A DNA stretch of 64,000 nt from a virus (taxonomy: Duplodnaviria; Caudoviricetes): positions 79,526 through 143,525 of the IMG/VR virus record IMGVR_UViG_3300037400_006508; one strand, written 5' to 3'. Shown in pieces: positions 6,848 through 36,435 of the stretch. The position numbers were made by a program, and so were the translations under genes. The notes under the pieces are model-generated. The model worked only from the letters and a program-made list of their open reading frames with translations, ran no database searches and was not told where the DNA came from. The first letter of the stretch is position 1. The number at the start of each line of letters is the position of its first letter.

Positions 6848-7417
6848 ATGACACGTTACGAAAAGGGATTTCTTGCAAAGTGCGCGGAGTACGGGCTTCC
6901 GTACGAGAACGCGATCGGACTGTTCAAGTCTGCCAAGGTCACTGGACTCATGAGCGACGGAAGGGTCGTCACAATAGACCATGGGAAGAAGACGGTAGGC
7001 GGCGGCAGGCCGATGCCGTCCTCGGGCGCCGGGTTCGTTTATACCGGTAAGTCCGATCCAAGGACCGTTGCGTCCGGAGGAGGGAGGTACAGATACGCTC
7101 CGGCTTCCTCGCAACCGGGCGCAAAGTTGGCGAAGAGGCAGCCTGACGGGAAGGGCGGATACCGCATGTCCGAGCCGGAGTGGAGGAAGACGTACGGCAA
7201 CACGAAGAGACCGAACCTACCGCAGTCCGAGATCGACAGGATCCATGCGAAAAACGTATCGGCCATGAGGAGCGATCCGGACTACATCGCCTGGAGCAAC
7301 AGGGTCGACCGCGGAGTCAGGGAAGATCGCCTGCGTGCCGCCAGGGAGATGAACGAAATGGCTGAGAAGCTTCTAGCGGCACGCGCCGCGGCCAGGTCCC
7401 GTGGCGGAAGGTCGTAG
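6848..7417 (+). CDS. putative internal head protein, MTxYExGFL-leader family
   Basis: Starts MTRYEKGFLAKCAEYGLPYENAIGLFKSA. Basic C-terminal payload. Confidence 0.7.
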   Translation: MTRYEKGFLAKCAEYGLPYENAIGLFKSAKVTGLMSDGRVVTIDHGKKTVGGGRPMPSSGAGFVYTGKSDPRTVASGGGRYRYAPASSQPGAKLAKRQPDGKGGYRMSEPEWRKTYGNTKRPNLPQSEIDRIHAKNVSAMRSDPDYIAWSNRVDRGVREDRLRAAREMNEMAEKLLAARAAARSRGGRS

Positions 7418-7418
7418 G

Positions 7419-7994
7419 ATGACCCCGTACGAGTCCGGCTTCCTGTCCAGGTGCTCCGAACTTGGCGTTCCGGAGCGCCTTTCGTCGTCTTTGCTGAAGC
7501 GTGCGGCCGAGGTCGGTCTGAAGACGAACCTGACCACGCACGTGGACATGCCCTATGTACCTGCCGTCGATACGCCGGTTCCCGACAACCCTACGCCTCC
7601 TCCGTTCGACTGGTCGAAGCTGGAATGGAAGAAAAGGGAGCCGGGCCTCCTGACCCGTATACTGAACGGCAGGAGAATATCGAAGTATCCTGACTGGAAG
7701 GATCGCATGAACAGGGACGTCGAGGAGCACAACAAGGCCGTCAGCGACTGGTACGACGAGGCGTACAAGAAGCTTCCGCCGTTGCCCGGAGGACCGGTGC
7801 AGAAGCTCAGCGACATCTACGATTACGTACGGAGGCGGCATGCTTTCACGCCGCCGACCCATCTTATGAAGGAGCAGCCGTCCTTCTATTGGGACGACTC
7901 TCCGCAGGAATACAGGCCTCCCACGCGGGATGAAAGGTTCAAGGAGTGGAGGTTCCAGAATCCATGGACCCCCGCTTCCGAGTTCAAGGGGTAG
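7419..7994 (+). CDS. putative internal head protein, MTxYExGFL-leader family
   Basis: ATG at 7419: MTPYESGFLSRCSELGVPERLSSSLLKRAA. Pro/Trp-rich payload. Confidence 0.7.
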   Translation: MTPYESGFLSRCSELGVPERLSSSLLKRAAEVGLKTNLTTHVDMPYVPAVDTPVPDNPTPPPFDWSKLEWKKREPGLLTRILNGRRISKYPDWKDRMNRDVEEHNKAVSDWYDEAYKKLPPLPGGPVQKLSDIYDYVRRRHAFTPPTHLMKEQPSFYWDDSPQEYRPPTRDERFKEWRFQNPWTPASEFKG

Positions 7995-7998
7995 CCGG

Positions 7999-10566
7999 AT
8001 GTCCGTAAAGTCAGCCCAGATTCCGGTGGACTTCATGGGCTGGGCCCAGGCCCAGGTTCCACATGACGTCGTGTCGTCCGTCGAGCGCAGCACGCCGGAG
8101 AACAAGATCGCGTTCGGTACAGGCAAGGGCGTGAAGGCCGGGTTGTCCCCGGAGGAGGCGAAGCTACGCGCCCTTCAGCACGAACTGGCGCTAAATCAGC
8201 AGGAGAACACGTCCACCGGTCTTGTGTCGGGACGGCCGTACAAGAATCACGAGTTTTTTGCAAGGACCAATATGCCGGAGAAGGTGTATGTCAATGTAGG
8301 CGGGTACGGGGAAGGGGAAGGCAACCCGCTTCTGTTCGGCGGATCGATTTCCCCCAATCCTGTCCTTGATCTGGCTACACCCGGAAAGATAGCCCCGGAG
8401 GACACCCTATCGTTTCAGCAATCGCAGGGAAGGGCGGCACAGAACGCGATAGATCTATTCAGGGCCGCCGGCGTGCCAGTCGAGTTGTTCGGGCATTCGT
8501 ACGGAGGCGACACGGCCGCGCACCTGGCCGTTGCGAACCCGGACGTACCGACGCATGCAATAGATCCCGTCAGCATGTTCAATCAGGTTCCTTCGGAGAA
8601 GAGGCCGTCGAACCTGACCGTGTATCAGCCGTACGGCAGCGCATGGAACGACGTTCCGTACGATTTCATCGCAACCGTCGGAAACAAGTACGCCCCGGAC
8701 AGGAACACCGTTCAGTACGAAGGCGGCCATGTCAAGGGGACAGGGCAGCTTGTCGACAGCATAATAGACGATTCAACGGCGAAGCGGACGTCCGATGCCG
8801 CGGTTCCGGCGCCATCCGCGGTCGTTCCTCTAAAGAAGGCCGGAAGCGGCCTCGTAGGTCCGCACAACATAGGTTCCGTATTCATGAAGGCGGCCGCCAG
8901 CTATAGATGGGGAGACGCATCTGCAAAACCTATCGTACCGGCCGAGAAGCCGGCGGATCCGCCGGCGCAGCCGAAAGAAAAAGGATCCGGCGGGTTTTCC
9001 CTTTTCGACAATGCCGCTACAAGGGGCATAGCCGATGCGATAAACTGGGGAATCGACACAGGATCCAGGGTCGGAACGCGCATGGGGTGGGTCGATCCGG
9101 ACGCGAACGCAAGAAGGCTGAGGGACAGGGCCGCCCGCCGCGAGGCGGACGAGAACAACGGGGTCGTGACCGGAAAGTACTACCGCGAAGCCCTGGACAG
9201 CGCATTGGACGACTGGAACGCCGGACAGGGCGACAAGGCGTGGACGAGAACGCTTGACGACCATTTCAGGTGGGGGAACATAACTCCGCAGGAATACTAC
9301 GGCATGTTGAAGGACCAGTACGGCAAGTATGCGTACATGTTCGGCATGCCGGGGGACATGTCTGCCGATCCTAACGGGCAATTCCCGATTACCAGGGACG
9401 GGAAGCCGGTCATGGTTCTTGGAAATGGCAAAAACGAGCAAATGGCCGTCGACACCAGGCAGAGGCAGTATGCATTCCAGAAGATGCTGGAGGGCGCGGG
9501 GCAGCATTTCGCCCATATGAAGGACGGTGATGTCGGATTCTTCGGTCCCTACACCCGTGCGGCTTCGTTCGCCATAAACGAGGACAGGTCGTTGCACGAT
9601 GGACCTTTTGTAGCGAACACCGACAATCTTTCCGATGTATATCCGGCTCCAGGAAGCATGCGGACCGGAAAGCCGTGGGGGTACAATCTTGCCGATCTTT
9701 CAGACAAGGCGAAACAGTTTCGCATGGATCGCGAGCTGGAGTGGTACGATAGACAGCTGGAGGAAAGTCGGAAGCTTCCGGAGTGGCAACGCGTCCCAGG
9801 TCTCGAAGAAAGCATCCTTTCGGCCAAAGAATCGGCAAAAAGGCCATGGGAGAAGTATTTTGTGGAGACCCCGGCGCGCCTCAAGAGCCTCAGCGACGGA
9901 ATATCGATGAGAAAATACAATCTTGAAAACGGCGACGGCCTTACGCCGGAGGACAGGGATAGACTGCAATCGGAGATAGACTCCATGCAGAAGGAGTACG
10001 ACAGCCTGTATGAAGGCAGTCGCGAGCAGGATAAGATGGATTGGGCCAGGGTCGGAGACGCCGCCGGATTCGCGGTACCGTATCTTGCGTTTCCGACGTA
10101 CGCCATACCGACCTACGGAATAAGCTCGGCTACGCGAAACCTGAACAAAGGAAACTACGCGTCAGCCGTCATGGATGCCGCGACGGCGGCCATTCCTTTC
10201 GGGGTAGACAGACTCGGAATCAAAAACAAGGTAGGGCAGGTTGCGGCGAATCTCGTTCCGTTCGGCGTTGCGCAGACGGCCGGCCCGCTCTTGGACGAGT
10301 ATTCGTACGGCGGGTACAACGACGCGACTCCGGAGTATCAGGAGGCGATGTCCCGGATACAGAACGACATGCAGAGGACAAGGGACATATCCTCTCTTGC
10401 CGCGATGTTGTCGGGCTATGACCAGATGAGTCCGGAAGACCAGGCCGGTGTATGGAGGATGTTTAACAATCTGACGGAATCCGAGATGGATCAGCTGGAC
10501 GCATTCGTTAACCAAAATGGCGGGAAGATAGACATCCCATGGCGTACCCAGACCTATTTTAAGTAA
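7999..10566 (+). CDS. large multi-module putative virion protein with N-terminal alpha/beta-hydrolase domain
   Basis: ATG at 7999 (MSVKSAQ). Nucleophile elbow GHSYGG at 8491-8508, followed by IDPV and GGH. KxA sites flank the domain. Hydrophobic segments near the C-terminus. Confidence 0.7.
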   Translation: MSVKSAQIPVDFMGWAQAQVPHDVVSSVERSTPENKIAFGTGKGVKAGLSPEEAKLRALQHELALNQQENTSTGLVSGRPYKNHEFFARTNMPEKVYVNVGGYGEGEGNPLLFGGSISPNPVLDLATPGKIAPEDTLSFQQSQGRAAQNAIDLFRAAGVPVELFGHSYGGDTAAHLAVANPDVPTHAIDPVSMFNQVPSEKRPSNLTVYQPYGSAWNDVPYDFIATVGNKYAPDRNTVQYEGGHVKGTGQLVDSIIDDSTAKRTSDAAVPAPSAVVPLKKAGSGLVGPHNIGSVFMKAAASYRWGDASAKPIVPAEKPADPPAQPKEKGSGGFSLFDNAATRGIADAINWGIDTGSRVGTRMGWVDPDANARRLRDRAARREADENNGVVTGKYYREALDSALDDWNAGQGDKAWTRTLDDHFRWGNITPQEYYGMLKDQYGKYAYMFGMPGDMSADPNGQFPITRDGKPVMVLGNGKNEQMAVDTRQRQYAFQKMLEGAGQHFAHMKDGDVGFFGPYTRAASFAINEDRSLHDGPFVANTDNLSDVYPAPGSMRTGKPWGYNLADLSDKAKQFRMDRELEWYDRQLEESRKLPEWQRVPGLEESILSAKESAKRPWEKYFVETPARLKSLSDGISMRKYNLENGDGLTPEDRDRLQSEIDSMQKEYDSLYEGSREQDKMDWARVGDAAGFAVPYLAFPTYAIPTYGISSATRNLNKGNYASAVMDAATAAIPFGVDRLGIKNKVGQVAANLVPFGVAQTAGPLLDEYSYGGYNDATPEYQEAMSRIQNDMQRTRDISSLAAMLSGYDQMSPEDQAGVWRMFNNLTESEMDQLDAFVNQNGGKIDIPWRTQTYFK

Positions 10567-10569
10567 CAG

Positions 10570-11765: not shown

Positions 11766-12157
11766 TGAACCAGGGCATGCCGTCGTGGGCCGAGCTGATG
11801 GCCCGTATGCCGAAGTCCTCGGTCTTTCCACAGCCCAGCGAGGTTGCGCACGGGCTTGAGACGATCAAGTACAAGAAGACCCCCGTCGTGGTATCCGAGT
11901 ACCATGTGGAGGTGTTCGACATGGAGTCGAAGAAGGACAGGGAGGACTACTGCAAGCTGATGCTGGACCTTGCGAACAAGGTTCAGAACTCGCAGTGCAT
12001 GATCGGCAGGCAGGAGCTTGAGAAGATGACTTCCAAGGACGGATCCACCACGTGGAAGAGGTATGTTGAGTGGTTCGACTACAAGCTGAACGATACCAGC
12101 ACGACCACGAAGACGGAGGACGAGGAGAAAGATGGAGATGAATCAGAAAATGGCTGA
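11765..12157 (+). CDS. hypothetical protein
   Basis: TAATG-coupled 130-aa ORF with typical codon usage. Confidence 0.65.
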   Translation: MNQGMPSWAELMARMPKSSVFPQPSEVAHGLETIKYKKTPVVVSEYHVEVFDMESKKDREDYCKLMLDLANKVQNSQCMIGRQELEKMTSKDGSTTWKRYVEWFDYKLNDTSTTTKTEDEEKDGDESENG

Positions 12158-14096: not shown

Positions 14097-14097
14097 G

Positions 14098-17000
14098 ATG
14101 GCGGACGGCCTTCCAGAGGGACTTCGTGAATTCGACGACGCGAAGGCGACGCGGAAGCTCATTTACGACAATGTGCTTTCCGCGGTGCAGAAGCGTTTTC
14201 CTGTAGAGGACGACAACTACAGGCTCGAGCTCCTCGACGCCAGGTACGGCGGTCCGCAGGAGTATACGCTGGCTCAGCAGAAGAACGCCATCTTGCGCAA
14301 TAGAAACCTAAGGACTCCGATTGTCGGCAAGTGGCGTCTGACGGACAAGAAGACCGGCCAGGTGCTCGACGAACGCGAGGACCAGGTCATGCAGGTCCCG
14401 TACTGGACCGACCGCGGCACCATCATCAACAACGGGTCCGAGTACACGGTCATCACGCAGTCCAGGCTCCGTCCGGGCGTGTACGCCAGGCGCAAGACGA
14501 ACGGAGGCCTGGAGGCGCAGTTCAACATCGATCCAAGGACGGGTCATTCGTTCAGGATAGGCCTGAACCAGCAGACCGGCGTGTTCGACGTATCCGTAGG
14601 GCAGGGCCACATACCTCTGTACCAGGTTCTTCGCGGTCTCGGCGTCGACGACAAGGAGATCATCAGGAACTGGGGCGCGGATCTTACGGCGGCCAATGCG
14701 CAGAAGTCGGATCCGCAGGCGTGGAGGAAGCTCTACGAGCGTATGGCCGGGTACAGGGCGGATCCGAATTTGACCGACGCGGACAGGATGGAGTATGTCA
14801 GGAACGGTCTTACGTCGTATAAGGTCGATCCGGACATCGTCGAGAGGACGATGGGACTCCGCAACGTGTCCGGAGTCACCCCGCAGCTGCTCATGCGTGC
14901 GTCGCAGAAGCTTCTTAACATATCTCGCGGCGACGAGAAGCCGGACAATCGCGACAATCCAAGGTTTTCGGCTTACTACTCGATCGAGGACTTCCTCAAA
15001 GAGCGCGTTGACAAGGATGCTGGTCGTCTCACAAAGTCGCTTCTGTTCAGGGCAAGGAGAAATAGAAACCTGAAGGGAGTCCGCAGGGACGCCCTCGCCC
15101 CGTATGTGGATGCGTTCATCCAGGGATCCGGCCTTGCGATGCCGGGAGAGGAGGCGAATCCGCTCTCCACGCTCGAGCAGATGTCCAGGATATCCAAGTT
15201 CGGCGAAGGAGGAATCCAGTCCGAAGAAGCCGTAACCATGTCCGCCCGCGAGGTGAACGGGGACTACCTCGGGTTCGTAGATCCGGTAGCCGGTCCCGAA
15301 TCGGGCAGGATCGGCGTTGACGTCAGGGCCACCTACCATACGTACAAGGGCAAGGACAACAAGATCTATGGCGAATTCCTGGATGCAAAGACGGGAAAGA
15401 CGGCGTACGTCGACATCGGAACCGCCGCTGACAGAAAGATAGCCTTCCCGGGTCAGGACATGTCGAAGCCGTACGTGTATATCATGAAGGACGGCGTTCC
15501 GCAGATGGCTCCGACGTCGGAAGTGCAGTATATTGTTCCGAACTACGGGCGTGTCGTCGGGTCGAACACCAACATGAATCCGTTTCCGACGGCCGTCCAG
15601 CCGAACAGGCAGTTCTACGCGTCGAAGTTCTGGACGCAGTATCTGCCGCAGGCGAAGGGCGAGGTGCCGTTGGTGGACTCGCTTATGCCGGACGGGAAGC
15701 AGACCTGGAGCGAGTACTACGGCAGGAAGGTCGGAGCCGTCAAGTCCGATGTAGACGGAGTCGTTACGCGTGTCACGGACGACTCGGTCACCATCAAGGA
15801 CAACACGGGCAAGACGCACAAGGTGGAGCTCGTCAAGAATCTTCCGTTCAACAGGCTGTCCGGCATTTCGTTCAGTCCGTCCGTCGAAGTCGGGCAGGAC
15901 GTGAAGTCCGGCGACATGATCGCCCATTCCAACTTCACGGACAAGAAGACCGGTGCGATCAACATGGGCCAGAACCTGCATGCGGCGATCATACCGTACA
16001 GGGGATACTCGTTCGAGGACGCCCACGTCATATCGGAGTCCGCCGCGAAGAGGCTTGCGACGGACAGGCTGTACAGTTTCGACCATGATTCAAGAAACGG
16101 CGTCATACTGGACAAAAAGAAATACATATCCGCGTTTCCGTCCAAGTTCACCAAGGATCAGATAGAGACGCTTGACGACAATGGCCTTGTAAAGCCGGGT
16201 ACGATACTCCACAGGGGAGATCCCATTGTAACTTCTCTCGGGCCAAAGGTTCTTACCTCGTCTGACAAGGCTCTCGGCAAACTGTCCAAGGCGCTGAGGA
16301 ATTCGTATACGGACCGCACGGAGACATGGGAGCACGACTACGAGGGGAAGGTCGTAGACGCCGTAAGGACGGCCGGAGGCGCGAAGGTGAACGTCGTTGC
16401 GCAGCCGCCGGTCAGGGCCGGGGATAAGCTTTCCGGAAGGTTCGGGCTGAAGGGTGTCGTCGGAAAGGTCGTTCCGGACGACGAGATGCCGAGGGACGCC
16501 ACAACGAACCAGCCGTACGACATGCTCATCAATCCGATGGGCTTTCTTTCGCGAGTGGCGCCGGGCCAGATCATGGAGATGGCCATGGGCAAGGTCGCCA
16601 AGGCGACCGGAAAGCAGGTTCGCATACCGCAGCTTCCACCGCCGGAGGGATGGTACGAGTGGACGAAGAACCAGCTTGCTCAGAACAATCTAACGGACTC
16701 GGCCAATGTGTTCGATCCGACCACCGGAAAGACCATAAACAACATAGGCGACGGGTATCTGTTCATATCGGCGTTCCACCATCTGGCCGAGAAGAAGGAG
16801 TCGATGCGGGGCGCCGGAGACGCCGCGTATACGCAGGACGAGCAGCCGGCGAAGGGCGGAAAGACCGGCGCGAAACGTTCGTCCGGCCTGGACAACTGGG
16901 CCATGCTGTCGCATGGGGCCACGGACGTGCTGAAGGACGCCGTTCTGATCAGAGGAACGAGGAACGACAATTATTGGAACTCCCTTAAGCTCGGCCTTCC

Positions 17001-18480
17001 TCTTCCCGAACCGGAATCTCCGTTCATCTACAAGAAGTTTCTCAATACGCTCAGGGCCGGCGGCATCAACGTAGTCGAGAAGGGAAATATCACCAAGATC
17101 ATACCGCAGACCGACAAGGATGTCGAACAGCTCGCGAACGGCCGGGTCATATCGTCGTCCGAGATGGTCGATTCGTCGTTCGATCCCGTAAAGGGCGGTT
17201 TGTTCGATCTTGGAAAGACCGGCGGAATGGCCGGCAACCAGTGGTCGATGATCGAACTTCCGGAGCCGGTTCCGAATCCGATAATGGAGGAGCCGGTCAG
17301 GAGGGTTCTCGGTCTTACCGTGTCCAAGATGGAGGATGTTCTTGCCGGAAGAGAGAAGATCGACGGAAAGACCGGCGGCGAGGCGCTGAAGTCCGCGTTG
17401 GCGAAGGTTGACGTCGACAAGAAGATCGCCGACGCGAAGAGGGACATACTCGGCCAGCGTGGGGCGAAGAGAGACGACGCCGTCAAGGTATATAGGTACC
17501 TGACGGCCATGAAGGAGCAGGGTCTCAGCCCGCAGGATTGGATGGTGTCGAAGGTTCCCGTCATACCGCCTGCGTTCAGGCCGGTGTCCAAGATGGGAGA
17601 CGTAGCCCTTGTGTCCGACATGAACGACCTGTACAAGGACATCATAGAGAACGCGAACAACTTCAGGGAGCTGAAGAAAGACGTTTCCGACGAAGGCGTT
17701 GCCGACGAGAGGATCAATATATACAACTCCGTCAAGGCCGCGTACGGCCTGGGACAGCCGATCACGCCGGAGAACGCCGCAAAGGGCGTCAAGGGCGCAC
17801 TGAGGCAGGTCATCGGGTCGAGTCCGAAGTTCGGACAGTTCCAGTCGAAGGTTCTATCGAAAACGCTCGATAACGTAGGGCGCGGCGTCGTGACGCCGGA
17901 TCCGAATTTGGACATGAACCAGGTTGGAGTTCCGGAGAACATGGCCTGGGAGATGTACAAGCCGTATGTGTTGCGAGGGCTCGTGCGGACGGGATATCCG
18001 TCGGCCACCGCCGTTAAAATGGTCGCCGACAAGACGGATACGGCCAGGCATATACTGGAGAAGGAGATGGAGGAGCGTCCTATCATCATGGATCGCGCCC
18101 CGACGTGGCACAAGTTCAATTTCCTTGCCTTCACTCCGCATATAACGCAGGACGAAACGATACGCGTATGTCCTCTTATAGTAAGCGGGTTCAACATGGA
18201 CTTTGACGGTGACACGGTGAACATGCACGTACCGTCGTCACAGAAGGCGGTTGACCAGGCCAAGCGCATAATGATGCCGTCGGAGAATTTGATTTCTACC
18301 ACCGACCTTTCCTCTCCCATGCACTCCCCGTCGAAGGAGCAGATCTTTGGGCTGTACGCCGCTACGTCGAAGGTGAACCAGAAGCCAGTCAAGGTGTTCA
18401 ACACCGTTTCCGAGGCCAAGAGGGCGTATGCGGCCGGCGAGATAGAGATGAACGACCCGATAGAGATTCTACAGAAATGA
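14098..18480 (+). CDS. rpoB: DNA-directed RNA polymerase, fused beta + N-terminal beta' (RpoB-RpoC1-like)
   Basis: Beta motifs: PYWTDRGTIINNGSE..TQSRLRPGV, NPLS..RIS, GPESGRIG, GYSFEDA, GDKLSGRFGLKGVV, NPMGFLSR, HHLAEKK, WAMLSHGA. Then beta' motifs: GGLFD, IELPEP, VPVIPPAFRP, SDMNDLY, GRGVVTP, DRAPTWH, and catalytic NMDFDGD (18193-18213). Confidence 0.95.
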   Translation: MADGLPEGLREFDDAKATRKLIYDNVLSAVQKRFPVEDDNYRLELLDARYGGPQEYTLAQQKNAILRNRNLRTPIVGKWRLTDKKTGQVLDEREDQVMQVPYWTDRGTIINNGSEYTVITQSRLRPGVYARRKTNGGLEAQFNIDPRTGHSFRIGLNQQTGVFDVSVGQGHIPLYQVLRGLGVDDKEIIRNWGADLTAANAQKSDPQAWRKLYERMAGYRADPNLTDADRMEYVRNGLTSYKVDPDIVERTMGLRNVSGVTPQLLMRASQKLLNISRGDEKPDNRDNPRFSAYYSIEDFLKERVDKDAGRLTKSLLFRARRNRNLKGVRRDALAPYVDAFIQGSGLAMPGEEANPLSTLEQMSRISKFGEGGIQSEEAVTMSAREVNGDYLGFVDPVAGPESGRIGVDVRATYHTYKGKDNKIYGEFLDAKTGKTAYVDIGTAADRKIAFPGQDMSKPYVYIMKDGVPQMAPTSEVQYIVPNYGRVVGSNTNMNPFPTAVQPNRQFYASKFWTQYLPQAKGEVPLVDSLMPDGKQTWSEYYGRKVGAVKSDVDGVVTRVTDDSVTIKDNTGKTHKVELVKNLPFNRLSGISFSPSVEVGQDVKSGDMIAHSNFTDKKTGAINMGQNLHAAIIPYRGYSFEDAHVISESAAKRLATDRLYSFDHDSRNGVILDKKKYISAFPSKFTKDQIETLDDNGLVKPGTILHRGDPIVTSLGPKVLTSSDKALGKLSKALRNSYTDRTETWEHDYEGKVVDAVRTAGGAKVNVVAQPPVRAGDKLSGRFGLKGVVGKVVPDDEMPRDATTNQPYDMLINPMGFLSRVAPGQIMEMAMGKVAKATGKQVRIPQLPPPEGWYEWTKNQLAQNNLTDSANVFDPTTGKTINNIGDGYLFISAFHHLAEKKESMRGAGDAAYTQDEQPAKGGKTGAKRSSGLDNWAMLSHGATDVLKDAVLIRGTRNDNYWNSLKLGLPLPEPESPFIYKKFLNTLRAGGINVVEKGNITKIIPQTDKDVEQLANGRVISSSEMVDSSFDPVKGGLFDLGKTGGMAGNQWSMIELPEPVPNPIMEEPVRRVLGLTVSKMEDVLAGREKIDGKTGGEALKSALAKVDVDKKIADAKRDILGQRGAKRDDAVKVYRYLTAMKEQGLSPQDWMVSKVPVIPPAFRPVSKMGDVALVSDMNDLYKDIIENANNFRELKKDVSDEGVADERINIYNSVKAAYGLGQPITPENAAKGVKGALRQVIGSSPKFGQFQSKVLSKTLDNVGRGVVTPDPNLDMNQVGVPENMAWEMYKPYVLRGLVRTGYPSATAVKMVADKTDTARHILEKEMEERPIIMDRAPTWHKFNFLAFTPHITQDETIRVCPLIVSGFNMDFDGDTVNMHVPSSQKAVDQAKRIMMPSENLISTTDLSSPMHSPSKEQIFGLYAATSKVNQKPVKVFNTVSEAKRAYAAGEIEMNDPIEILQK

Positions 18481-18650: not shown

Positions 18651-18662
18651 TTGGGGGCTAAA

Positions 18663-19148
18663 ATGACACCATACGAACTTGGTTTTTTGAAAACTGCGCG
18701 GGCCAAGCTGTCTGACAGCGACGTGGAAGCCTTGCGCGAGATGATGGCGCAGCAGAAGGAGAACGCGAGGCAGCGCGAGCTGCGTCGTACCGCAAGGTTC
18801 GACAAGAACCGCAAGGAGCGCGTAAGGGATGCGAAGAACTACATGATGATAATCCTCGGCCTTGCCGGATTCATGGGCGGAAGGCTTGCGGGAGGCGCAA
18901 TCGGAAAGTCGATCGGACAGCCCGGAGACATGACGCACAACAAGGGTGCTCTCATCGGGTCGCTGTCTGGGTTGGTTGCCGGAGGAATAGGCGGACGTTA
19001 CTTCGGAGAAGGGGCAGGAAACAGGACCGCCGACAGGATGGAGCAGATCGAGAAGGACACCGGGATACGAGTCAACGAGCAGGAGACGGAGAACCTGGCC
19101 CGCACGACGAACAACCTGATGCTCTACAACACGTTTTTCAAACACTAG
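18663..19148 (+). CDS. glycine-zipper 2TM protein with MTPYELGFLKTA leader
   Basis: ATG at 18663. Leader matches the family. ILGLAGFMGGRLAGGAIG...GALIGSLSGLVAGGIGG. Confidence 0.75.
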   Translation: MTPYELGFLKTARAKLSDSDVEALREMMAQQKENARQRELRRTARFDKNRKERVRDAKNYMMIILGLAGFMGGRLAGGAIGKSIGQPGDMTHNKGALIGSLSGLVAGGIGGRYFGEGAGNRTADRMEQIEKDTGIRVNEQETENLARTTNNLMLYNTFFKH

Positions 19149-19178: not shown

Positions 19179-19204
19179 AGATGTCAAGCAAGGAAGGACA
19201 CAAC

Positions 19205-19747: not shown

Positions 19748-19751
19748 TTAC

Positions 19752-20731: not shown

Positions 20732-22591
20732 ATGCCGACAACGATCGGCCAGATCTACGTAAATGAAGCCCTTCCTCCGGAGTACCGTGACTACAACAGG
20801 GTCATGGGCGCTCCGGAGATGAAGGGCATTCTGACCGACATAATCAATAACCACCCGGACAAGTACAGGGAGGTATCGGCCGCCCTCATGCGAGCAGGAA
20901 ACAAGTTCGCGTACGAGGGAGGTACGACCCTTAGGCTGTCCGACGTGGCTCCGCCCTTTGACAGAAAGCCGCTGTACGCGTCGATAGAGAAGGCCGAGAA
21001 CGCGATACGTTCATCCAGGCTGTCCGACGACGAGAAGAACGAGCAGCTTAAGTCCCTCTACGAAAAGGCGTACGAAGCCATAAAGGGCGATACGTACGAC
21101 GTGGCTCTTGCCGCCAACAATCCGTTCGCCCTGCAGGTGAAGTCGAAGGCGAGAGGCGACCCAAACCAGTTGTCGGCCATGCTGTCAACGCCAGGCGTGT
21201 ATGCGAACAGCAAGGGCGAGACGATCCCCATGTTCATCAAGCATAGCTACGCGGAGGGGCTTTCACCGGCGGAGATATGGGCCGGAGCGTACGGCGCCAG
21301 ACTAGGAACAGTGTCGACGAAGTTCGCGACGAGGCAGGCCGGAGAGCTTGGAAAGCTCCTTACGTCCGCGTCGATCGATCAGGTAGTTACGGAGGATGAC
21401 TGCGGTACGATCAACGGGATGCCGGCAAGCGTTGACGACAACGACAACATAGGCGCCCTTCTGGCGTCTCCAGCCGGCGGATACGATGCCGGTACGATCA
21501 TAACGAAATCGGTTCTGTCCGATATAAGGAAGTCGGGCGCCACCGACATACTGGTCAGGTCTCCGATAACATGCGGTGCCAAGAACGGGGTATGTTCGCA
21601 TTGCGCCGGGGTCAGGGAGACCGGAGGCCTTCCGCCCGTCGGGTACAACCTCGGTACGAACGCTGCGGCGGCTCTAGCCGAGAGGCTGGCCCAGGGTTCT
21701 TTGAACGTAAAGCACAGCGGAAAGAAGAACAAGGGCGCCGGACAGTACCAGGGGTTCGAGATGATCAAGCGCATGGCGACGGTGCCGAAGAACTATGCGG
21801 ACCGCGCCACCGTTGCCGAGCTGGACGGAACGGTCGACAAGATAGTCAACGCCCCCCAGGGAGGCCATTTCGTAGTAATAGGCGACCAAAAGCACTATGT
21901 TCCTTCCGGGTATGACATTCTGGTCAAGGAGGGCGATTCCGTCGAGGCGGGAGACCAGCTTTCTGATGGGGTCATCAGTCCGGCCGACGCCGTCAGGCTC
22001 AAAGGCATCGGCGAAGGCCGCAGGTACTTTGCGAACAGGTTCACGAAGGCGTTCAGGGATTCGGGCTACGCCGTGAACAGAAGGAACGCCGAGGCCGTCG
22101 CAAAGGCGCTCATAAACAATGTGGTGGTCGAGAGCGAGGACGCCGAGGCGCAGATGCTGCCGGGCGATACCGTCACCTACGGCAGATGGTCATGGGGATA
22201 CAAGCCGCGTCCGAATTCGACGCAGCTGTCGCCGAAGGCGGCGATAGGGCAGTATCTCGAACAGCCGGCCCTTCACTATACGATAGGCACCAGGATCACA
22301 AAGAAGGTCGCGGACGAGCTTACGAAGTTCAAGGTACCGGCCGTGTTGGCGAACAAGTCGGCCGTCGGAGTACGTCCGGAGATGCAGTCCGTCGTGCAGA
22401 CGACAGGAAACACCGACGACTGGATGGCGAGGCTGGGCACCACGTATCTCGGCAAGAGACTGACGGAGGACGTACAGCGCGGCGCCGAGTCCAACGTCCA
22501 TGGGACGAATCCGTACCCCGGTATAGCGAAGGGTACCGAGTTCGGACAATGGGGTTCGCCCGGACACAGGGACGGGCCGTACTATTACTAG
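20732..22591 (+). CDS. rpoC: DNA-directed RNA polymerase beta' C-terminal half (RpoC2-like)
   Basis: KSKARG..QL (SGARG), SYAEGLS..GAYGARLG (bridge helix), EDDCGT, VRSPITC..GVCSHCAG (Zn site), trigger loop AQGSLNVKH, sandwich-barrel hybrid VKEGDSVEAGDQLSDG. Confidence 0.93.
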   Translation: MPTTIGQIYVNEALPPEYRDYNRVMGAPEMKGILTDIINNHPDKYREVSAALMRAGNKFAYEGGTTLRLSDVAPPFDRKPLYASIEKAENAIRSSRLSDDEKNEQLKSLYEKAYEAIKGDTYDVALAANNPFALQVKSKARGDPNQLSAMLSTPGVYANSKGETIPMFIKHSYAEGLSPAEIWAGAYGARLGTVSTKFATRQAGELGKLLTSASIDQVVTEDDCGTINGMPASVDDNDNIGALLASPAGGYDAGTIITKSVLSDIRKSGATDILVRSPITCGAKNGVCSHCAGVRETGGLPPVGYNLGTNAAAALAERLAQGSLNVKHSGKKNKGAGQYQGFEMIKRMATVPKNYADRATVAELDGTVDKIVNAPQGGHFVVIGDQKHYVPSGYDILVKEGDSVEAGDQLSDGVISPADAVRLKGIGEGRRYFANRFTKAFRDSGYAVNRRNAEAVAKALINNVVVESEDAEAQMLPGDTVTYGRWSWGYKPRPNSTQLSPKAAIGQYLEQPALHYTIGTRITKKVADELTKFKVPAVLANKSAVGVRPEMQSVVQTTGNTDDWMARLGTTYLGKRLTEDVQRGAESNVHGTNPYPGIAKGTEFGQWGSPGHRDGPYYY

Positions 22592-22596
22592 GCAAA

Positions 22597-22625: not shown

Positions 22626-22650
22626 GAAATAAATCCGAAGGGGATAAGGG

Positions 22651-25146: not shown

Positions 25147-25244
25147 AAGATGACAAGGTACGAACAAGGATTCCTCACCAAGTGCGCTTCGGCCAGAGTT
25201 CCGAAGAACGTAGCCTTCGCCCTTCTGAAGAGGGCGCAGGAAGC
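25146..25244 (+). repeat. direct repeat copy 1 (about 100 nt, leader-coding)
   Basis: Near-identical to 26326-26424 (atgacaaggtacgaacaagg...gccttcgcccttctgaagagggcgcagga). Confidence 0.9.
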
Positions 25245-25938: not shown

Positions 25939-25939
25939 G

Positions 25940-26311: not shown

Positions 26312-26325
26312 AAGAGACAAGGAGA

Positions 26326-26424
26326 AAAAATGACAAGGTACGAACAAGGGTTTCTAACCAAGTGCGCTTCGGTCCGTGTTCCGAAGAACGTAGCCTTCGC
26401 CCTTCTGAAGAGGGCGCAGGAGGC
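26326..26424 (+). repeat. direct repeat copy 2 (about 100 nt, leader-coding)
   Basis: Near-identical to 25146-25244. Confidence 0.9.
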
Positions 26425-26944: not shown

Positions 26945-26963
26945 TGTCTTTAGTGAAACCAAA

Positions 26964-27314
26964 ATGACACAGAACTACGTAAACGGATTTTTCACCAAGT
27001 GCGCGGAACAAAGGGTTCCGTACGATATCGCCGTTGCGCTGTACAAGAAAGCAGGTACTACAGGATTGTACGAGGCTCCTGTAACTCCAGCTGTACGCGC
27101 TGCCTACAATACGGGCGCTGCGCTTGGTACGGCAACCCGTGCAATGATGCCCGGTGGCAAGACCGAGATGGTGAGAAGGGGTCTTGTGTCGTATCTTAAG
27201 AACAGAGCAACTAGAGCAGCGATGAAAAAGCGTGAGGCGCAGAAAGTTCCGGCGAATAACGCTGCGGACAAAGCGGCCAGAGCCGCTGCCGTTATGATGG
27301 GCACGCAGAAGTAG
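26964..27314 (+). CDS. small basic putative internal head protein, leader-family variant
   Basis: MTQNYVNGFFTKCAEQRVPYDIAVALYKKAG. Confidence 0.7.
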   Translation: MTQNYVNGFFTKCAEQRVPYDIAVALYKKAGTTGLYEAPVTPAVRAAYNTGAALGTATRAMMPGGKTEMVRRGLVSYLKNRATRAAMKKREAQKVPANNAADKAARAAAVMMGTQK

Positions 27315-27335
27315 TCCACACCGGCCAAGTAATGC

Positions 27336-28271: not shown

Positions 28272-28272
28272 C

Positions 28273-30128: not shown

Positions 30129-30134
30129 CAGGAA

Positions 30135-31451
30135 ATGAACGAGATCGATGTAACCAGAAGCGACGTCGACCAGCTGTACAAGCTGGCGTTCCACAGTCGT
30201 TCCGGCCTAGAGAAGCAGGCGGACGGCGGAAATCCGTTGTACGGTGCGCTGATAGGCGGTGGTCTGGGGCTTATAAACCATGCGATAACGCCCAAGGATG
30301 AGGACGAGTCCGAGATCGGCAGGCTTCTCAGGCATGTGCTCGGAGGGGCCGCTCTTGGCGGACTCGCCGGATATGGCGTAGACGCGTTCAAGAGTTCCGG
30401 TGTCGGTCGTACCGTAAACAGCGTTGTGTCAGGCGACGATTCCGCCGGCGACAGCAAGCCAACGCAGAACTTACTAGACGTTCTTGGCCTTGGGAACAAG
30501 CCGGCACCGGCGGCCGATTCGTCTTCCGCAAGTGGAGCCGGCGGTGCATCAGCGGGAGGATCTTCATCGGGAGCATCCGGCGGTTCGTCCGGAAACGGCG
30601 GCCCGTCTTCCGGTGGCGGTTCGTCGCCGGCACCTGCGAAGGAGTATGATCCGAAAAAGTATCCGGAAAACGGAAATGCGGGCGAGATTTTCCAGTGGGG
30701 GCTGGATAATAAGGTTATTCCGGCAGCTATAACAGGAGTATCCGCAGAGGTAGCTCCAGCGGCCGCCGGTGCTGTATTGAAGGCAGACGCGAGGCGTGCG
30801 TCGCAAGCTGTCATAGACAGGGCTACAGCTGCTTCGAGGGAACCTGTTTCATTGGAAGTTACAAGGGACCCAACAACAGTTACTTTTGATCCGCCTCCGG
30901 CGCACGATATTGCGGGTAGAAACATAAATCCAAGGTCTGGCGGAGAAAATCCGCAACAAAGGACGGTAAGGGGCAGGCACGGCAGCACGGTTACTACAAC
31001 TGTGACGAATACGGAGCGGTTCAGCGACCTTCTTGATGCATCTAGACAAAATTTAAAAGGCGATAGACTTGTACAGCATCTTGTAGACAGAGGGTTGATA
31101 GATAGAGATATGGTCGATGGACTCCAGAGACTTAGATCTGGCAATAGAGCGGATAGGAGATTTGCTCGCCGTGTAGTCAGAGACTATGAAAGAGCTGTCG
31201 AGAAGGCAAGAAAAATTGAAAGAAGCGTAGATACTGTAGCAAGAAGGGGTACCTGGGGGTCTAAAGCGCGCATTGGTACAGAACGAACGCTGGGCAAAGT
31301 ACTAGCTAGTGGATTTCTACGCCATTCGTTGGCTGTTATTGGAGTTGGATACGAATTTTGGACCAATAATCACATGTCGCCGACGGGAACTGAAGTTGAA
31401 AACGCCTTCGATAAAGCAACGCGTTCGTTCGGTGGAGGAAACGGACTGTAA
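30135..31451 (+). CDS. glycine-zipper protein with KxA leader and variable C-terminal domain
   Basis: LYKLA...LEKQA, then GALIGGGLG / LGGAALGGLAGYG, a Ser/Gly linker, and an AT-richer Arg-rich C-terminal half. Confidence 0.7.
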   Translation: MNEIDVTRSDVDQLYKLAFHSRSGLEKQADGGNPLYGALIGGGLGLINHAITPKDEDESEIGRLLRHVLGGAALGGLAGYGVDAFKSSGVGRTVNSVVSGDDSAGDSKPTQNLLDVLGLGNKPAPAADSSSASGAGGASAGGSSSGASGGSSGNGGPSSGGGSSPAPAKEYDPKKYPENGNAGEIFQWGLDNKVIPAAITGVSAEVAPAAAGAVLKADARRASQAVIDRATAASREPVSLEVTRDPTTVTFDPPPAHDIAGRNINPRSGGENPQQRTVRGRHGSTVTTTVTNTERFSDLLDASRQNLKGDRLVQHLVDRGLIDRDMVDGLQRLRSGNRADRRFARRVVRDYERAVEKARKIERSVDTVARRGTWGSKARIGTERTLGKVLASGFLRHSLAVIGVGYEFWTNNHMSPTGTEVENAFDKATRSFGGGNGL

Positions 31452-32869
31452 TGAGCCTTGTAAAACTGATTCATTCATCGTCCTGGGATCCGACCATAGG
31501 AGTCGGCGCAGAAATCGTCAGGCGCGAGGGGGAGCTCAACAAGCAGGCCTCCACGATCTTCGGCAAGGAATACGACGAATTGAAGCCGGACGACAAGTCC
31601 GTGGGCATACATGTCGTGGCTCTCGGGGACGCCGAGCATTACGGCATGAACAGGAACGGCGACCTGTTCTCCAAGAAGGCGTGCGTCGAGTACCATCCGA
31701 CGTTCCTGGACGGATGCGTGTACAGGCACCACAGGAACAAGGATCCGGAGACGCAGGGCATCGGAAAGATCGCCGCGGCCACGTACAACGAGGACATGGG
31801 CCGCGTCGAGCTGTTCATACACGCGGACAAGGAAAAGGCGGCTCCGGAGCTGGAACGCCTAGAAAAGGAGGGCGAGATCCCGTTCTCCATGGCCTGCGTG
31901 GTACCGAACGACCGCTGCTCTATCTGCGGGTCTCTCAGGAAGTCGGCCGGTGACGAGTCCGAGTGCGAGCATGTCAGGGACCATCTCGGGGAGCAGTGGG
32001 ACGACGGAAGGAAGGTCGGCACGTTCAACGACCAGCCGAAGTTCTTCGACATCAGCTTCGTCGGTCGCCCCGCGGACAGGATCGCCTGGAATCTCAAAGT
32101 CGCTTCTGCCCTTGACCTTGATTCCGTGAAGTACGCCGAATACGAGGGAGTGACGGCGCCGGACGATCTAATGGTGGAAAAGGAGTCCTCCGTCAGGAAG
32201 CTCGGATACGCAAGGGATATCGTAGACATGCAGAACTCCTTCCGCGGGTGGTTGACCAAGTCCGCGTCCGTCGTTACGGCCAGGGACGGGTATCTTTACG
32301 AATTCAGGAAGATCGCCGCGGACTCTCTCGACGATGCCACGTTGTCCAGGCTCAGGGAGCTTCCGGTCAAGTCCGCCATGTCCATACTTTCCAGACGCGG
32401 AATAGTGATGGACGTGCCGACATTCTTCAAGTACGCCACGGGCGACGACTACAAGTCGGTCGTCGAACCGTACATGGAGCCGGTAGAACGCACAATTCCA
32501 CATCTTGTCGAATCGCTTGTTAAGACTTCGTCTGTATCCCCTCTTTGCAACGATGACACTTACGATTCGTACGATCCGTCGGTACCCGTTTCCGTTCCAT
32601 CCGCGTTGGAGTCCATGCTAGCGAAGCATGCGTCCAGCGTGGGTGACAGGATAATGGATGCGACTATGGACGATTCCGTCTGCCGGCCTGTGTACTTTGT
32701 TGACACGAAAGCGGATAAATGCGTAAATGGTGGCGTCGTGCAGAAGCTGGCTTCTGCGTATCTTTCTTATCAGCTTTCCGCGATAGACGCGGTAGTGAAC
32801 GGCCATAGTGGCATCAGCAAAACAGACGCGGAGGCGCTGGCTTCCGTAAACAACCTACAAAAGAAGTAA
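31451..32869 (+). CDS. prohead maturation protease (HK97/herpes-type fold) with Zn-finger insertion
   Basis: NRNGDLF, VYRHH (catalytic His region), PFSMAC (catalytic Ser region), CSICG..CEH insertion, FFDISFVGRPAD. Located before scaffold and MCP. Confidence 0.85.
   Translation: MSLVKLIHSSSWDPTIGVGAEIVRREGELNKQASTIFGKEYDELKPDDKSVGIHVVALGDAEHYGMNRNGDLFSKKACVEYHPTFLDGCVYRHHRNKDPETQGIGKIAAATYNEDMGRVELFIHADKEKAAPELERLEKEGEIPFSMACVVPNDRCSICGSLRKSAGDESECEHVRDHLGEQWDDGRKVGTFNDQPKFFDISFVGRPADRIAWNLKVASALDLDSVKYAEYEGVTAPDDLMVEKESSVRKLGYARDIVDMQNSFRGWLTKSASVVTARDGYLYEFRKIAADSLDDATLSRLRELPVKSAMSILSRRGIVMDVPTFFKYATGDDYKSVVEPYMEPVERTIPHLVESLVKTSSVSPLCNDDTYDSYDPSVPVSVPSALESMLAKHASSVGDRIMDATMDDSVCRPVYFVDTKADKCVNGGVVQKLASAYLSYQLSAIDAVVNGHSGISKTDAEALASVNNLQKK
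32700..32728 (+). promoter_or_regulatory. candidate promoter TTGACA-N17-GTAAAT (TG extended) for scaffold-capsid operon
   Basis: Perfect -35 inside the 3' end of the protease gene, about 150 nt before the scaffold start. Confidence 0.45.
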
Positions 32870-32873
32870 CCAC

Positions 32874-34055: not shown

Positions 34056-34064
34056 TAGGCTGCA

Positions 34065-34448: not shown

Positions 34449-34463
34449 ACAGGAGACAAACAC

Positions 34464-35024: not shown

Positions 35025-35042
35025 GGAGAGGAGACCACAGAA

Positions 35043-36017
35043 ATGGAAACCCAGAACGTCAGCATAATCAACTCCCAGATCCTGGAGAGCCTGAAGAACG
35101 ACGACGCCGCCACCTTCGAGAAGAAGGCGCAGGCCGCCGCCACGAACTACACCCGCATCCAGGTCCGCGAAGGCTCGTTCGCCTTCAAGGTCCTCCCGCC
35201 CGAGAAGGCGACGGACGAGATGCTCAAGTACGACCTGACCGAACACCTCGGCGTCGTATGGGAGCGCGAGCCCGATTCGCCCGCGGCGAAGTGGGTCCCG
35301 CTCGAGACGGTGCCGGACGGCGAGTACATCAAGTCGTCCCGCTACATCATTCCGTTCGCCCGCGTGCTCACGCCCGACTTCCGCAAGGACATCGCCGAGC
35401 TCCGCACGACCCGCCAGGACATCAGGAAGATCCTCACGGACAACTCCATCAAGGACGGCCTCGCCGAGATCGACTCCAAGTTCATCTACACGGTCAACTC
35501 GATCGTGTTCGACGCGGACGCCGCCGGCAAGCCCAACCACATGTCCGGCAAGGTCCAGTGGATGGACTTCGAGGATCCGCTCAACCGCGACACGTTCGCG
35601 GAGGCGACCAAGATGCTTCCGTCCGGCAACGCCGAGGGCAAGTTCGTCAACCGCAACTACTGCTGCCTGATGAACGAGATCACGGCCCGCGACCTGCTCA
35701 AGCTCGATCGCACCGCGGTCGGCGGCGACAAGGCCCAGGACTTCTTCCTGAACGGCCTCACCACGGACACCGTCATGGGACTGAAGTGCCTCTTCACGAT
35801 CAAGAACCATCTGGTTCCCACGAACTGGATCTACTTCTTCGCGGAGCCCGACTTCCTCGGAAAGTGCTTCTACCTCGACGACTGGACGATGTACGTCAAG
35901 AAGGAGGCGTACTTCATCTCCATGTTCTCGTACTGGATGGGCGGCTTCGCCTTCGGCAACACCGCAGGCATGGCGCTCGCCAGGTTCAACGTGGACGCGG
36001 ACGAGTCGAACACGTAG
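35043..36017 (+). CDS. major capsid protein (HK97 fold, putative)
   Basis: Extreme codon bias and strong RBS. Position after protease/scaffold/decoration, followed by a strong hairpin. 324 aa with VREGSFAFKVLPP..EREPD..A..VP. Confidence 0.8.
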   Translation: METQNVSIINSQILESLKNDDAATFEKKAQAAATNYTRIQVREGSFAFKVLPPEKATDEMLKYDLTEHLGVVWEREPDSPAAKWVPLETVPDGEYIKSSRYIIPFARVLTPDFRKDIAELRTTRQDIRKILTDNSIKDGLAEIDSKFIYTVNSIVFDADAAGKPNHMSGKVQWMDFEDPLNRDTFAEATKMLPSGNAEGKFVNRNYCCLMNEITARDLLKLDRTAVGGDKAQDFFLNGLTTDTVMGLKCLFTIKNHLVPTNWIYFFAEPDFLGKCFYLDDWTMYVKKEAYFISMFSYWMGGFAFGNTAGMALARFNVDADESNT

Positions 36018-36025
36018 CCAGGAAA

Positions 36026-36089
36026 CCCCGCACCGGTTCCACACGGGGCCGGTGCGGGGGACCCCTACCCGTTCAACGGAGGCTTTTTG
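36026..36089 (+). terminator. tandem hairpins after MCP (15-bp GC stem, then small hairpin + U tract)
   Basis: ccccgcaccggttcc-acac-ggggccggtgcgggg, then ccg-ttcaa-cgg...gcttttt. Confidence 0.7.
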
Positions 36090-36090
36090 C

Positions 36091-36435
36091 ATGCATCCGA
36101 AGCTTGCGGAGTACAGAAAGTCCATTAGATCGAATCCCGATGCATTCGTGCAGGGGATTCGTTCTTTTTGCAAGACGGCCCAGTACAAGGAAGAGGAGAA
36201 GAGCCTATTCGACAAGATATTGCCGTGGGCTCTCGCCATCGGCGGAGGGTATCTAGCGCTCAAGGGCGGAGAGTACTGGGGAAGGCACGCGCATGCTACA
36301 AATAACCAAAACGGACCTGTAAAGGGACCGATCGTAGGCTTCCTGAAGGCGCTTCTTCCAAAGGGGAAAAAGCCAAAGGAACCCGCGGATCCGACGGTGC
36401 CTTGGTCCATCGCCACGGGCGGCGGATACTATTGA
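36091..36435 (+). CDS. small membrane protein with KxA leader
   Basis: ATG at 36091: MHPKLA...FCKTAQ, then ILPWALAIGGGYLALKGG. Confidence 0.65.
   Translation: MHPKLAEYRKSIRSNPDAFVQGIRSFCKTAQYKEEEKSLFDKILPWALAIGGGYLALKGGEYWGRHAHATNNQNGPVKGPIVGFLKALLPKGKKPKEPADPTVPWSIATGGGYY

Follow-up and report, generated by a model that had tools for sequence, protein, structure and literature searches.

A Lys-x-Ala motif concentrated in the head proteins of a tailed phage as a candidate cleavage code of its gp21-fold prohead protease

The DNA analysed here (the window: 64,000 nucleotides, positions 79,526 to 143,525 of the IMG/VR virus record IMGVR_UViG_3300037400_006508, Caudoviricetes) is the final 64 kb of a 143.5-kb single-contig phage genome. 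Its + strand carries all credible genes, which are named below by the position of their first nucleotide (Table 1). The tripeptide K-x-A is specifically enriched in the proteins of its head region and is conserved in their relatives, and several of these proteins share a modular N-terminal leader that contains the motif. We read one of them, 31451, as a prohead serine protease of the gp21/assemblin fold with the predicted specificity hydrophobic-x-Lys-x-Ala, cutting after Ala, and we would give this reading a probability of roughly 0.74. The comparative, structural and control evidence supports K-x-A well as the cleavage motif; from it we infer that the motif is cut and that the scissile bond follows Ala. 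A previous sequence-only reading of the window had proposed that the phage protease cleaves after K-x-A, and that the motif marks about 20 genes as capsid-packaged, processed cargo.

Expected K-x-A counts were derived from shuffles of each protein sequence, which corrects for composition. The motif occurs 13 times in the protease (2.7 expected, p<=0.0005), 13 times in 28273 (3.6 expected) and 6 times in 34065 (1.3 expected), where it takes 6 of the 10 lysines; these counts match exactly those given by the sequence-only reading. The scaffold-like protein 32874 (16 against 7.5) and 22651 (11 against 4.9, p 0.005) are also enriched. Across the whole genome (713 open reading frames, ORFs) the enrichment survives correction for K and A content, and these five proteins, all encoded near the protease, are the only ones individually enriched. 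The earlier statement that K-x-A saturates the head-region proteins thus stands in so far as the motif is the top outlier of the core set, and needs narrowing to four or five truly saturated proteins. A typical head-region protein has one to three sites in an N-terminal leader, and the decoration-like protein 34464 and 27336 are not enriched. The sparseness of the motif in tail proteins, pointed out at the same time, is borne out by the sheath (883 aa, 2 against 3.0 expected), by baseplate protein 54513 (541 aa, 1 against 1.1) and by the 21 tail proteins together (36 against 35.6). The tape-measure protein (45239-50014) shows a marginal excess (15 against 8.5, p ~0.02) and an N-terminal I-G-K-L-A site; as the tail proteins together match the expected count, we regard this excess, like the N-terminal sites of 44077 and 45239, as fortuitous.

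An unbiased scan of every X-gap-Y residue pair with gaps of 0-3 (1,071 motifs) ranked K-x-A first in the core, protease-proximal set (z 9.8, or 9.7 without the scaffold-like protein), fourth in the remaining head-region genes (z 4.2) and at z 0.1 in the tail proteins. The enrichment is restricted to this orientation and spacing: K-x-A is about 3-fold up, whereas K-A, K-xx-A, K-xxx-A, A-K, A-x-K, R-x-A, K-x-S, K-x-G and E-x-A are all at background in this phage. No X-x-E motif appears among the top outliers of the core proteins, and the scan thus gives no sign, at the sequence level, of the cut C-terminal to Glu at X-x-E that is made in T4, phiKZ and SPN3US. The pairs L/I/F-x-K are co-enriched with K-x-A, so that the motif extends to hydrophobic-x-K-x-A. 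In this extended form it occurs 69 times in the 27 head-region genes (18.8 expected, z 12), as compared with 8 times in the 21 tail genes (10.7 expected) and not at all in eight upstream genes (2 expected). Twenty of the 27 head-region proteins have a K-x-A within their first 45 residues (7.6 +/- 2.3 expected, p<=0.001), against 2 of the 21 tail proteins, and 15 of 22 still do when the leader family described below is collapsed. The N-terminal tetrapeptides listed in the sequence-only reading all exist and nearly all fall within these 45 residues; L-K-I-A, from the overlapping and doubtful ORF 10863, stands only at residue 70, and two of the K-K-A-Q and K-E-A-Q sites are internal.

It is hardly credible that this signal is a statistical or compositional artefact, produced by K/A-rich helical or low-complexity segments or by paralog ancestry. 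The K-K-A-A repeat of the scaffold-like protein does inflate overlapping counts, and the five leader copies are paralogous segments. Against this, 59 K-x-A are found where ~21 are expected, with a z of 9.5 even when shuffling stays within 15-residue blocks, which rules out local K/A-rich composition; the neighbouring spacings and orientations are flat; and hundreds of diverged homologs have the motif within differing flanks. The enrichment also holds when the scaffold-like protein is removed and when the leader family is collapsed. Explanations by local composition, low complexity and paralogy were thus tested and rejected.

Bacteriophage T4 provides a control. The identical blind scan of T4 gp67, gp68, gp21 and gp22 returned I-x-E and L-x-E at ranks 1 and 2, and no such signal was found in the T4 sheath, tube, portal, gp23 or gp24. 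The scan therefore recovers the T4 code, and a cleavage code does leave such a footprint; the K-x-A footprint in the window is stronger than that of the T4 code in T4. This bears on another possibility, that K-x-A is not cleaved and serves instead for docking or recognition, for example where scaffold and internal proteins touch the shell, the portal or DNA, or for modification of its lysine. Many of the sites lie in predicted helices, hydrophobic-x-K-x-A could form one face of a helix, and virions of Salmonella phage Arash still contain detectable orthologs of the saturated proteins. However, the T4 code leaves a like signal in like proteins, the placement of the sites is typical of prohead-protease sites (leader ends, the linker behind the protease domain, the beginning of the capsid-protein N-arm, high density in the scaffold-like protein), and a real cut in phage G maps to the aligned position of the capsid protein. 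We consider docking or modification improbable.

The predicted structure of 31451 is consistent with a prohead protease. An AlphaFold2 (AF2) model built from 42 homologs (pLDDT 83) has an N-terminal domain (residues 1-~206), a linker (206-228) and a helical C-terminal domain. The N-terminal domain aligns with T4 gp21 (5jbl_A) at Z 12.0, with a root-mean-square deviation of 3.2 A over 148 of 165 residues (VIA-align), and more weakly with the proteases of varicella-zoster virus (VZV, Z 6.8) and human cytomegalovirus (HCMV, Z 5.0). The top three Foldseek matches are all gp21 (probability 0.98-0.99). The model thus places 31451 in the gp21/assemblin fold. Residues H93, H94, S146, C156, C159, C172 and H174 are invariant in the 42 homologs, and in many homologs an intein interrupts the protein near residue 66 or beside S146, where one would expect it if these were catalytic-site motifs. 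Sequence comparisons do not place the protein among gp21-like proteases, and the family is distinct in sequence: no Pfam family matched at E<=0.01, PHROG 18299 ('head maturation protease') matched only at E 5.5e-4, and a PDB sequence-profile search with the protease alignment gave chance matches only. The position of the gene is that of the gp21-like group, next to the scaffold-like and major capsid genes of the head module, where the order is protease 31451, scaffold-like 32874, 34065, decoration-like 34464 and the major capsid protein (MCP) 35043.

The linker, the only low-confidence stretch of the model, holds two K-x-A sites, K216-V-A218 and K227-Y-A229. Among the 120 close homologs listed they are conserved in 92% and 99%, respectively, and a site of the linker region can be aligned in Arash, Vibrio phage D69 and Bacillus phage G, where one site stands before the catalytic domain and one exactly after it. 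From their position, the linker sites are candidate sites of autoprocessing or release.

Some further features of this protein family may be mentioned. The intein-bearing homologs are ~830-1,190 aa long (Hint + LAGLIDADG), with the insertion at about residue 150, after S146-M-A-C, or near residue 66; the protease of the window has no intein. Residues 156-174 form a C-x-x-C ... C-x-H cluster (C156, C159, C172, H174) resembling a zinc knuckle, and H174 may serve either in metal binding or as the third residue of the catalytic site. Across 148 protease homologs, C-x-H is likewise among the most enriched motifs (z 17.8).

Comparison with relatives shows that the motif is retained where the surrounding sequence is not. 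Among counterparts (homologs, or proteins at the same position in the case of the scaffold-like and small head proteins), K-x-A is enriched in Arash gp220 (10 against 3.0 expected), gp223 (8 against 3.0), gp225 (7 against 1.9) and the protease gp222 (7 against 3.3), and in D69 268 (11 against 4.0), 271 (10 against 2.9), 273 (6 against 1.6) and the protease 270 (8 against 3.1), despite an identity of only 27-40%. The phage G protease gp19 has 8 (2.5 expected). The sites coincide where the flanking sequence diverges, namely before and after the protease catalytic domain and at the MCP N-terminus. There are 542 close protease homologs, on contigs of 140-206 kb; among the matches listed, 120 of 120 are enriched (mean 15.2 against 3.9 expected), and the sites ending at residues 33, 77, 218, 229, 289, 329 and 434 are conserved in 82-99%, as compared with a mean column conservation of 65%. 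An exhaustive search gave 2,697 protease clusters at 50% identity. In 148 diverse representatives K-x-A occurs 1,887 times (576 expected) and is the top motif in 117. Moreover, at 78 metagenomic loci on viral contigs (protease identity 29-78%) it is the top X-x-Y motif of the neighbouring genes in the large majority. The signal is weaker in gp94 of Catera, a cluster C mycobacteriophage (18 against 8.2, ~2-fold), in which K-x-A is still the top motif. The domain homologous to the protease forms, in cluster C mycobacteriophages, the N-terminal part of a fusion protein of 1,369 aa (Catera gp94).

These data also argue against cleavage of the motif by a host protease or by a phage enzyme other than the 31451 product. 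There is a precedent in some staphylococcal phages, where a host protease trims the N-termini of capsid and scaffold proteins. Here, the motif travels with the protease family across Salmonella, Vibrio and Bacillus/Lysinibacillus hosts and the 78 metagenomic loci, and it is densest in the protease itself, so that such an enzyme seems very unlikely.

The MCP supplies the closest link to a measured cut. Its AF2 model (pLDDT 84, pTM 0.83) gave 353 PDB matches at E<=0.001, with HK97 gp5 first, which identifies the fold as that of HK97. It is 27% identical to the Arash MCP gp226. The E-K-K-A-Q that the sequence-only reading had noted in the MCP is at residues 26-30, and all but one of 52 anchored MCP homologs (51) have a K-x-A ahead of the conserved N-arm (~4/57 by chance); the Lys at P3 and the Ala at P1 are fixed, and P2, P4 and P1' vary. 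The phage G capsid protein gp27 is related to the window MCP by hhalign (99% probability, E 1e-17). It has 282 residues, and a mature length of 255 was determined by N-terminal sequencing (Hua et al. 2017, PMC5646251, Table 1), which implies a cut at A-L-A27|Q28; removal of 27 residues from gp27 reproduces the published masses of 31.2 and 28.2 kDa. This cut lies 7 residues upstream of the conserved N-arm Arg. K-x-A| ends 7 residues upstream of the same Arg in most family members, and 8 in the window, so the phage G cut coincides with the aligned K-x-A position, give or take one residue. The phage G data support cutting after Ala at the MCP site. At the same time they show that Lys at P3 is not obligatory everywhere. 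A multi-omics study of phage G used fully tryptic searches and is silent on cleavage.

The missing Lys in phage G suggests a different weighting of the motif, in which the real determinant would be assemblin-like, a small P1 Ala followed by a small or polar P1', with the P3 Lys a preference of the clade or a residue with a docking or charge role, and with some K-x-A left uncut. The fold also matches the herpesvirus proteases, and one leader copy has R-C-S in place of K-C-A. Yet if Ala alone were decisive, other X-x-A motifs should rise in the substrates; R-x-A and E-x-A, like K-x-S and K-x-G, are at background while K-x-A is 3-fold up, and K is present in 51 of 52 MCP sites. This alternative is therefore unlikely in our view, and we return to hydrophobic-x-Lys-x-Ala as the predicted recognition sequence.

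The second line of evidence is a modular leader. Five proteins (6848, 7419, 25150, 26330 and 26964) start with a common module of ~30 residues, M-T-R-Y-E-x-G-F-L-x-K-C-A ... L-L-K-R-A, whose two sites, F-L-x-K-C-A and L-L-K-R-A, both fit hydrophobic-x-K-x-A. The similarity stops after residues 30-37, except for 25150 and 26330, which are paralogous over their whole length (blastp E 5e-27, 214 residues). A shortened form is found on 18663, whose payload has a weak Gly-zipper Pfam match under the curated cut-off. A seventh copy lies ~7.3 kb before the start of the window, at genome positions 72247-72570, and its payload is a peptidoglycan-binding LysM domain (Pfam E 4e-14). In relatives, several ORFs begin with the same module; it was not found in the Arash, D69, phage G and Catera segments searched. 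Like the capsid-targeting sequence (CTS) of T4, it is a short leader common to otherwise unrelated proteins and ends in what is presumably the motif of the protease. By this analogy we infer that the leader proteins are packaged in the head.

Other head proteins have conserved N-terminal sites without the leader module. Such sites are conserved in orthologs of 22651, 28273, 30135, 32874, 34065 and 36052; 27336 and three neck and tail proteins (36437, 36865 and 37652) have orthologs without them. In 22651, an N-terminal extension of 37 residues closes in a K-E-A|Q site, found in 6-7 of 12 orthologs, and homology to the Arash virion protein gp218 starts at residue 38. In 28273 the sites at residues 31-33 and 89-91 are conserved in position. 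The region at ~300-325 and the C-terminal third of 28273 are missing from its Arash and D69 homologs; as a side observation, this mid-protein region is a Gly/Asn/Pro/Arg-rich stretch followed by an Asp4-His4 run. The N-terminal K-x-A of 30135 is retained in both detectable orthologs, that of 32874 in 6 of the 6 orthologs with an alignable N-terminus, and the sites of 34065 near residues 11-13 and ~31-44 in 9 of 12. The positional counterparts of 32874 are Arash gp223 and D69 271, for which the counts were given above. The protein also just reaches the Pfam threshold for the N-terminal domain of FliG (25.3 against 25 bits, residues 246-317), which is probably a generic helical-repeat similarity.

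Table 1. Features of the window, with window coordinates
Feature	Position	Strand	Evidence or remark
Leader copy 1, 31 codons, two K-x-A, on basic 189-aa protein	6848..6940	+	leader hidden Markov model (HMM) E 7e-21
Leader copy 2, start refined to ATG 7419; first site degenerate R-C-S, second L-L-K-R-A	7419..7511	+	leader HMM E 1.5e-19
RNA polymerase beta fused to N-terminal part of beta'	14098..18480	+	Pfam Rpb2_6 9e-43, Rpb1_2 1.5e-24; Rpb1_1/2 domains
Short leader form, 12 codons, ends F-L-K-T-A, on glycine-zipper-like 161-aa protein	18663..18698	+	leader comparison
RNA polymerase beta' C-terminal part, separate gene	20732..22591	+	Pfam Rpb1_5; ortholog Arash gp216
Head protein, 831 aa	22651..25146	+	homolog of abundant Arash virion protein gp218
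Leader copy 3, on 262-aa protein	25150..25242	+	leader HMM E 5e-23
Leader copy 4, on 204-aa protein	26330..26422	+	leader HMM E 5e-23
Leader copy 5, on basic 116-aa protein	26964..27059	+	leader HMM E 5e-22
K-x-A-saturated head protein, 483 aa	28273..29724	+	homolog of Arash virion protein gp220 and D69 268
Gly/Ser-rich protein, 438 aa, directly upstream of protease	30135..31451	+	two N-terminal sites, A18 and A29
Predicted prohead protease, 472 aa, 13 K-x-A	31451..32869	+	gp21 fold by AF2 model
Protease inter-domain linker, sites K216-V-A218 and K227-Y-A229	32096..32137	+	only low-confidence stretch of model
Ala-rich acidic scaffold-like protein, 393 aa	32874..34055	+	16 K-x-A, partly within K-K-A-A repeat
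Small acidic head protein, 127 aa	34065..34448	+	6/10 lysines in K-x-A
Major capsid protein, HK97 fold, predicted 29-residue N-terminal propeptide	35043..36017	+	AF2
Predicted MCP maturation site, K27-K28-A29 | Q30	35121..35129	+	K-x-A conservation
127-aa protein after MCP	36052..36435	+	conserved F-C-K-x-A, residues 39-43
Neck, tail and baseplate module, 21 genes; internal negative control	36437..63918	+	sheath by PHROG 279

The above observations can be combined in a simple scheme. The protease would cut hydrophobic-x-Lys-x-Ala after Ala, with P5, P3 and P1 recognized and P1' usually Ser, Ala, Glu, Gln or Gly. Inside the prohead it would remove the 29-residue propeptide of the HK97-fold capsid protein, and it may chop the scaffold-like 32874 and the K-x-A-saturated 28273 and 34065 into small pieces, which would exit or rearrange. 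It would also cut itself at the linker behind its catalytic domain and at further sites, leading to release and then self-destruction, and trim short N-terminal leaders off head-internal proteins. The ~30-residue leader of the six window proteins and the upstream LysM protein may deliver its payload into the prohead and then be clipped off, in analogy to the T4 CTS. As for the claim of about 20 cargo genes, packaging and processing are credible for the six leader proteins and for 22651, 28273, 30135, 32874, 34065 and 36052. Since ~7.6 of 27 N-terminal sites are expected by chance, the number is too generous; several of the single sites could be fortuitous, and the RNA polymerase genes are unmarked.

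Several observations weigh against this scheme. First, P3 is Ala and not Lys at the one cut for which there is a measurement, that of the phage G MCP, so that Lys may be a preference rather than a requirement; in this respect the K-x-A cleavage code of the sequence-only reading, which agrees with the site conservation, the gp21 fold, the linker sites, the T4 control and the phage G cut, must be qualified. Second, P1' is Pro at 13 of the 129 head sites, and many proteases do not cut before Pro. Third, several conserved K-x-A form part of helices or strands in the modelled fold of the catalytic domain, and cutting there would need unfolding. Fourth, the assignment of 31451 as a protease rests on its predicted fold, with no Pfam family and a weak PHROG match. 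Fifth, the RNA polymerase subunits, which in Arash are the packaged proteins with the best documentation, have neither enrichment nor leader. The 14098 protein has 11 K-x-A (8.1 expected) and no N-terminal site, and 20732 has 6 (4.3 expected); nevertheless Arash gp206, the ortholog of 14098, is the most abundant virion protein by mass spectrometry (MS), and gp216 is also among the most abundant. K-x-A is therefore no general mark of packaged proteins. Finally, the orthologs gp218, gp220, gp222, gp223 and gp225 were detected in Arash virions, but the virion proteome of this phage comprises 116 proteins including metabolic enzymes, and is so broad that presence there is weak evidence for packaging.

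Comparison with known systems may place the predicted rule in context. The T4 core system (gp21, gp22/gp67/gp68, IPI-III with CTS) has the same protease fold, and likewise a protease gene beside the scaffold and capsid genes, a motif dense in the scaffold/core proteins and in the protease, and a short leader ending in the motif on otherwise unrelated small proteins. There are also differences. The T4 motif is (L/I)-x-E, whereas here it is hydrophobic-x-K-x-A; the T4 CTS has 10 residues and one site, as compared with ~30 residues and two sites; and the T4 capsid protein is of the gp23 type with a 65-residue propeptide, while that of the window is of the HK97 type with a predicted propeptide of 29 residues. 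T4 gp21 has no detectable sequence similarity to 31451 and is much shorter (165 residues in the crystal); 31451, at 472 aa, contains an inserted Cys/His cluster and is extended C-terminally by a large helical domain.

The proteases of phiKZ (gp175), 201phi2-1 and SPN3US (gp245) all cut after Glu, at (A/S/G)-x-E (PMC5694885, PMC10052503), whereas the candidate P1 residue here is Ala. These phages have many head-internal proteins with N-terminal propeptides, extra motif copies inside the propeptides, paralogs with identical leaders, and a virion RNA polymerase packaged in the head, features that the phage of the window would share. The phiKZ and SPN3US proteases undergo C-terminal autocleavage, and the linker sites of 31451 are at the corresponding place. 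The architecture of the leader is paralleled by the shared propeptides of SPN3US gp53 and gp54 and by the T4 CTS. To our knowledge, the specificity of prohead proteases has been mapped experimentally in only a few phages. The known gp21-like group (T4, phiKZ, 201phi2-1, SPN3US) always cuts after Glu, and the predicted Lys-x-Ala rule would be a variant of this known principle, not a system of a new kind.

Herpesvirus assemblin has Ala at P1 of its cuts, and Ser usually follows. It acts at two places, a maturation site and a release site that separates the protease domain from the scaffold-like domain. Analogously, conserved K-x-A|S sites of 31451 lie exactly at the linker between the protease and C-terminal domains. 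The structural match of 31451 to the VZV and HCMV enzymes indicates a related fold and is much weaker than that to gp21, and the assemblin consensus has a hydrophobic residue at P3, where the window has Lys. We regard the likeness to assemblin as a resemblance, not as established homology of specificity.

Among phages, the phage G protease gp19 is homologous to the catalytic domain of 31451 (34% over 195 residues) and is itself K-x-A-enriched, and its MCP gp27, homologous to that of the window, loses 27 residues by a cut after Ala and before Gln. Phage G differs in the site without Lys (A-L-A|Q), in the shorter protease (300 aa, without the long C-terminal domain) and in the size of its genome (498 kb). 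The nearest cultured phages, Arash and D69/D148/D181, have a collinear module of RNA polymerase, gp218, gp220, protease, scaffold-like protein and then MCP, with the same K-x-A enrichment and aligned sites, at only 27-40% identity and with genomes of 181-187 kb. The paper describing Arash contains no protease annotation or cleavage analysis. A literature search found no description of the K-x-A motif, which may nevertheless have been published before, notably for phage G.

In a wider sense, we are inclined to think that in a large, mostly uncultured clade a gp21-fold protease has switched from the after-Glu rule to an assemblin-like after-Ala rule, in combination with a ~30-residue leader for the loading of payloads. 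So defined, the clade would comprise >2,600 protease clusters at 50% identity and include the cultured phage G, Arash and the Vibrio D69 group, with the cluster C mycobacteriophages as a weaker case. If true, this would show a shift of specificity within the gp21/assemblin fold toward the herpesvirus-like P1 Ala. The motif would then serve as an annotation key for 'hypothetical' head modules (propeptides, scaffold-like, internal and ejected proteins), and for thousands of unannotated phages the sequence by itself could tell which head proteins are processed and which cargo is injected. It would also improve virion proteomics searches, because semi-specific termini after Ala escape fully tryptic searches. 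Moreover, the leader would be a candidate portable capsid-targeting sequence for loading foreign proteins into such capsids.

The remaining genes provide the setting. The head module (~6.8-36.4 kb) precedes the genes for the neck, the sheath (38380), the tube, the tape measure and the baseplate. A megablast search with 14 kb of the window found no DNA-level match in cultured phages. By protein comparison, the nearest annotated relatives are Salmonella phage Arash and Vibrio phages D69/D148/D181 (27-41% identity), with Bacillus phage G more distant. Pfam and PHROG searches with the protease, the K-x-A-rich proteins and the leader payloads returned almost no matches. The acidic 188-aa protein encoded at 19181-19747 has an N-terminal L-S-K-K-A|Q site and, behind it, G-G-M-P-P-G-D-P-A-A in tandem repeats. 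The head module also includes the genes of a multisubunit RNA polymerase. Neither 12132 nor 22651 has significant similarity to annotated portals (for 12132 including those of Arash, gp204, phage G and Catera), and 12132-14096 sits at the position of the Arash 'portal' gp204.

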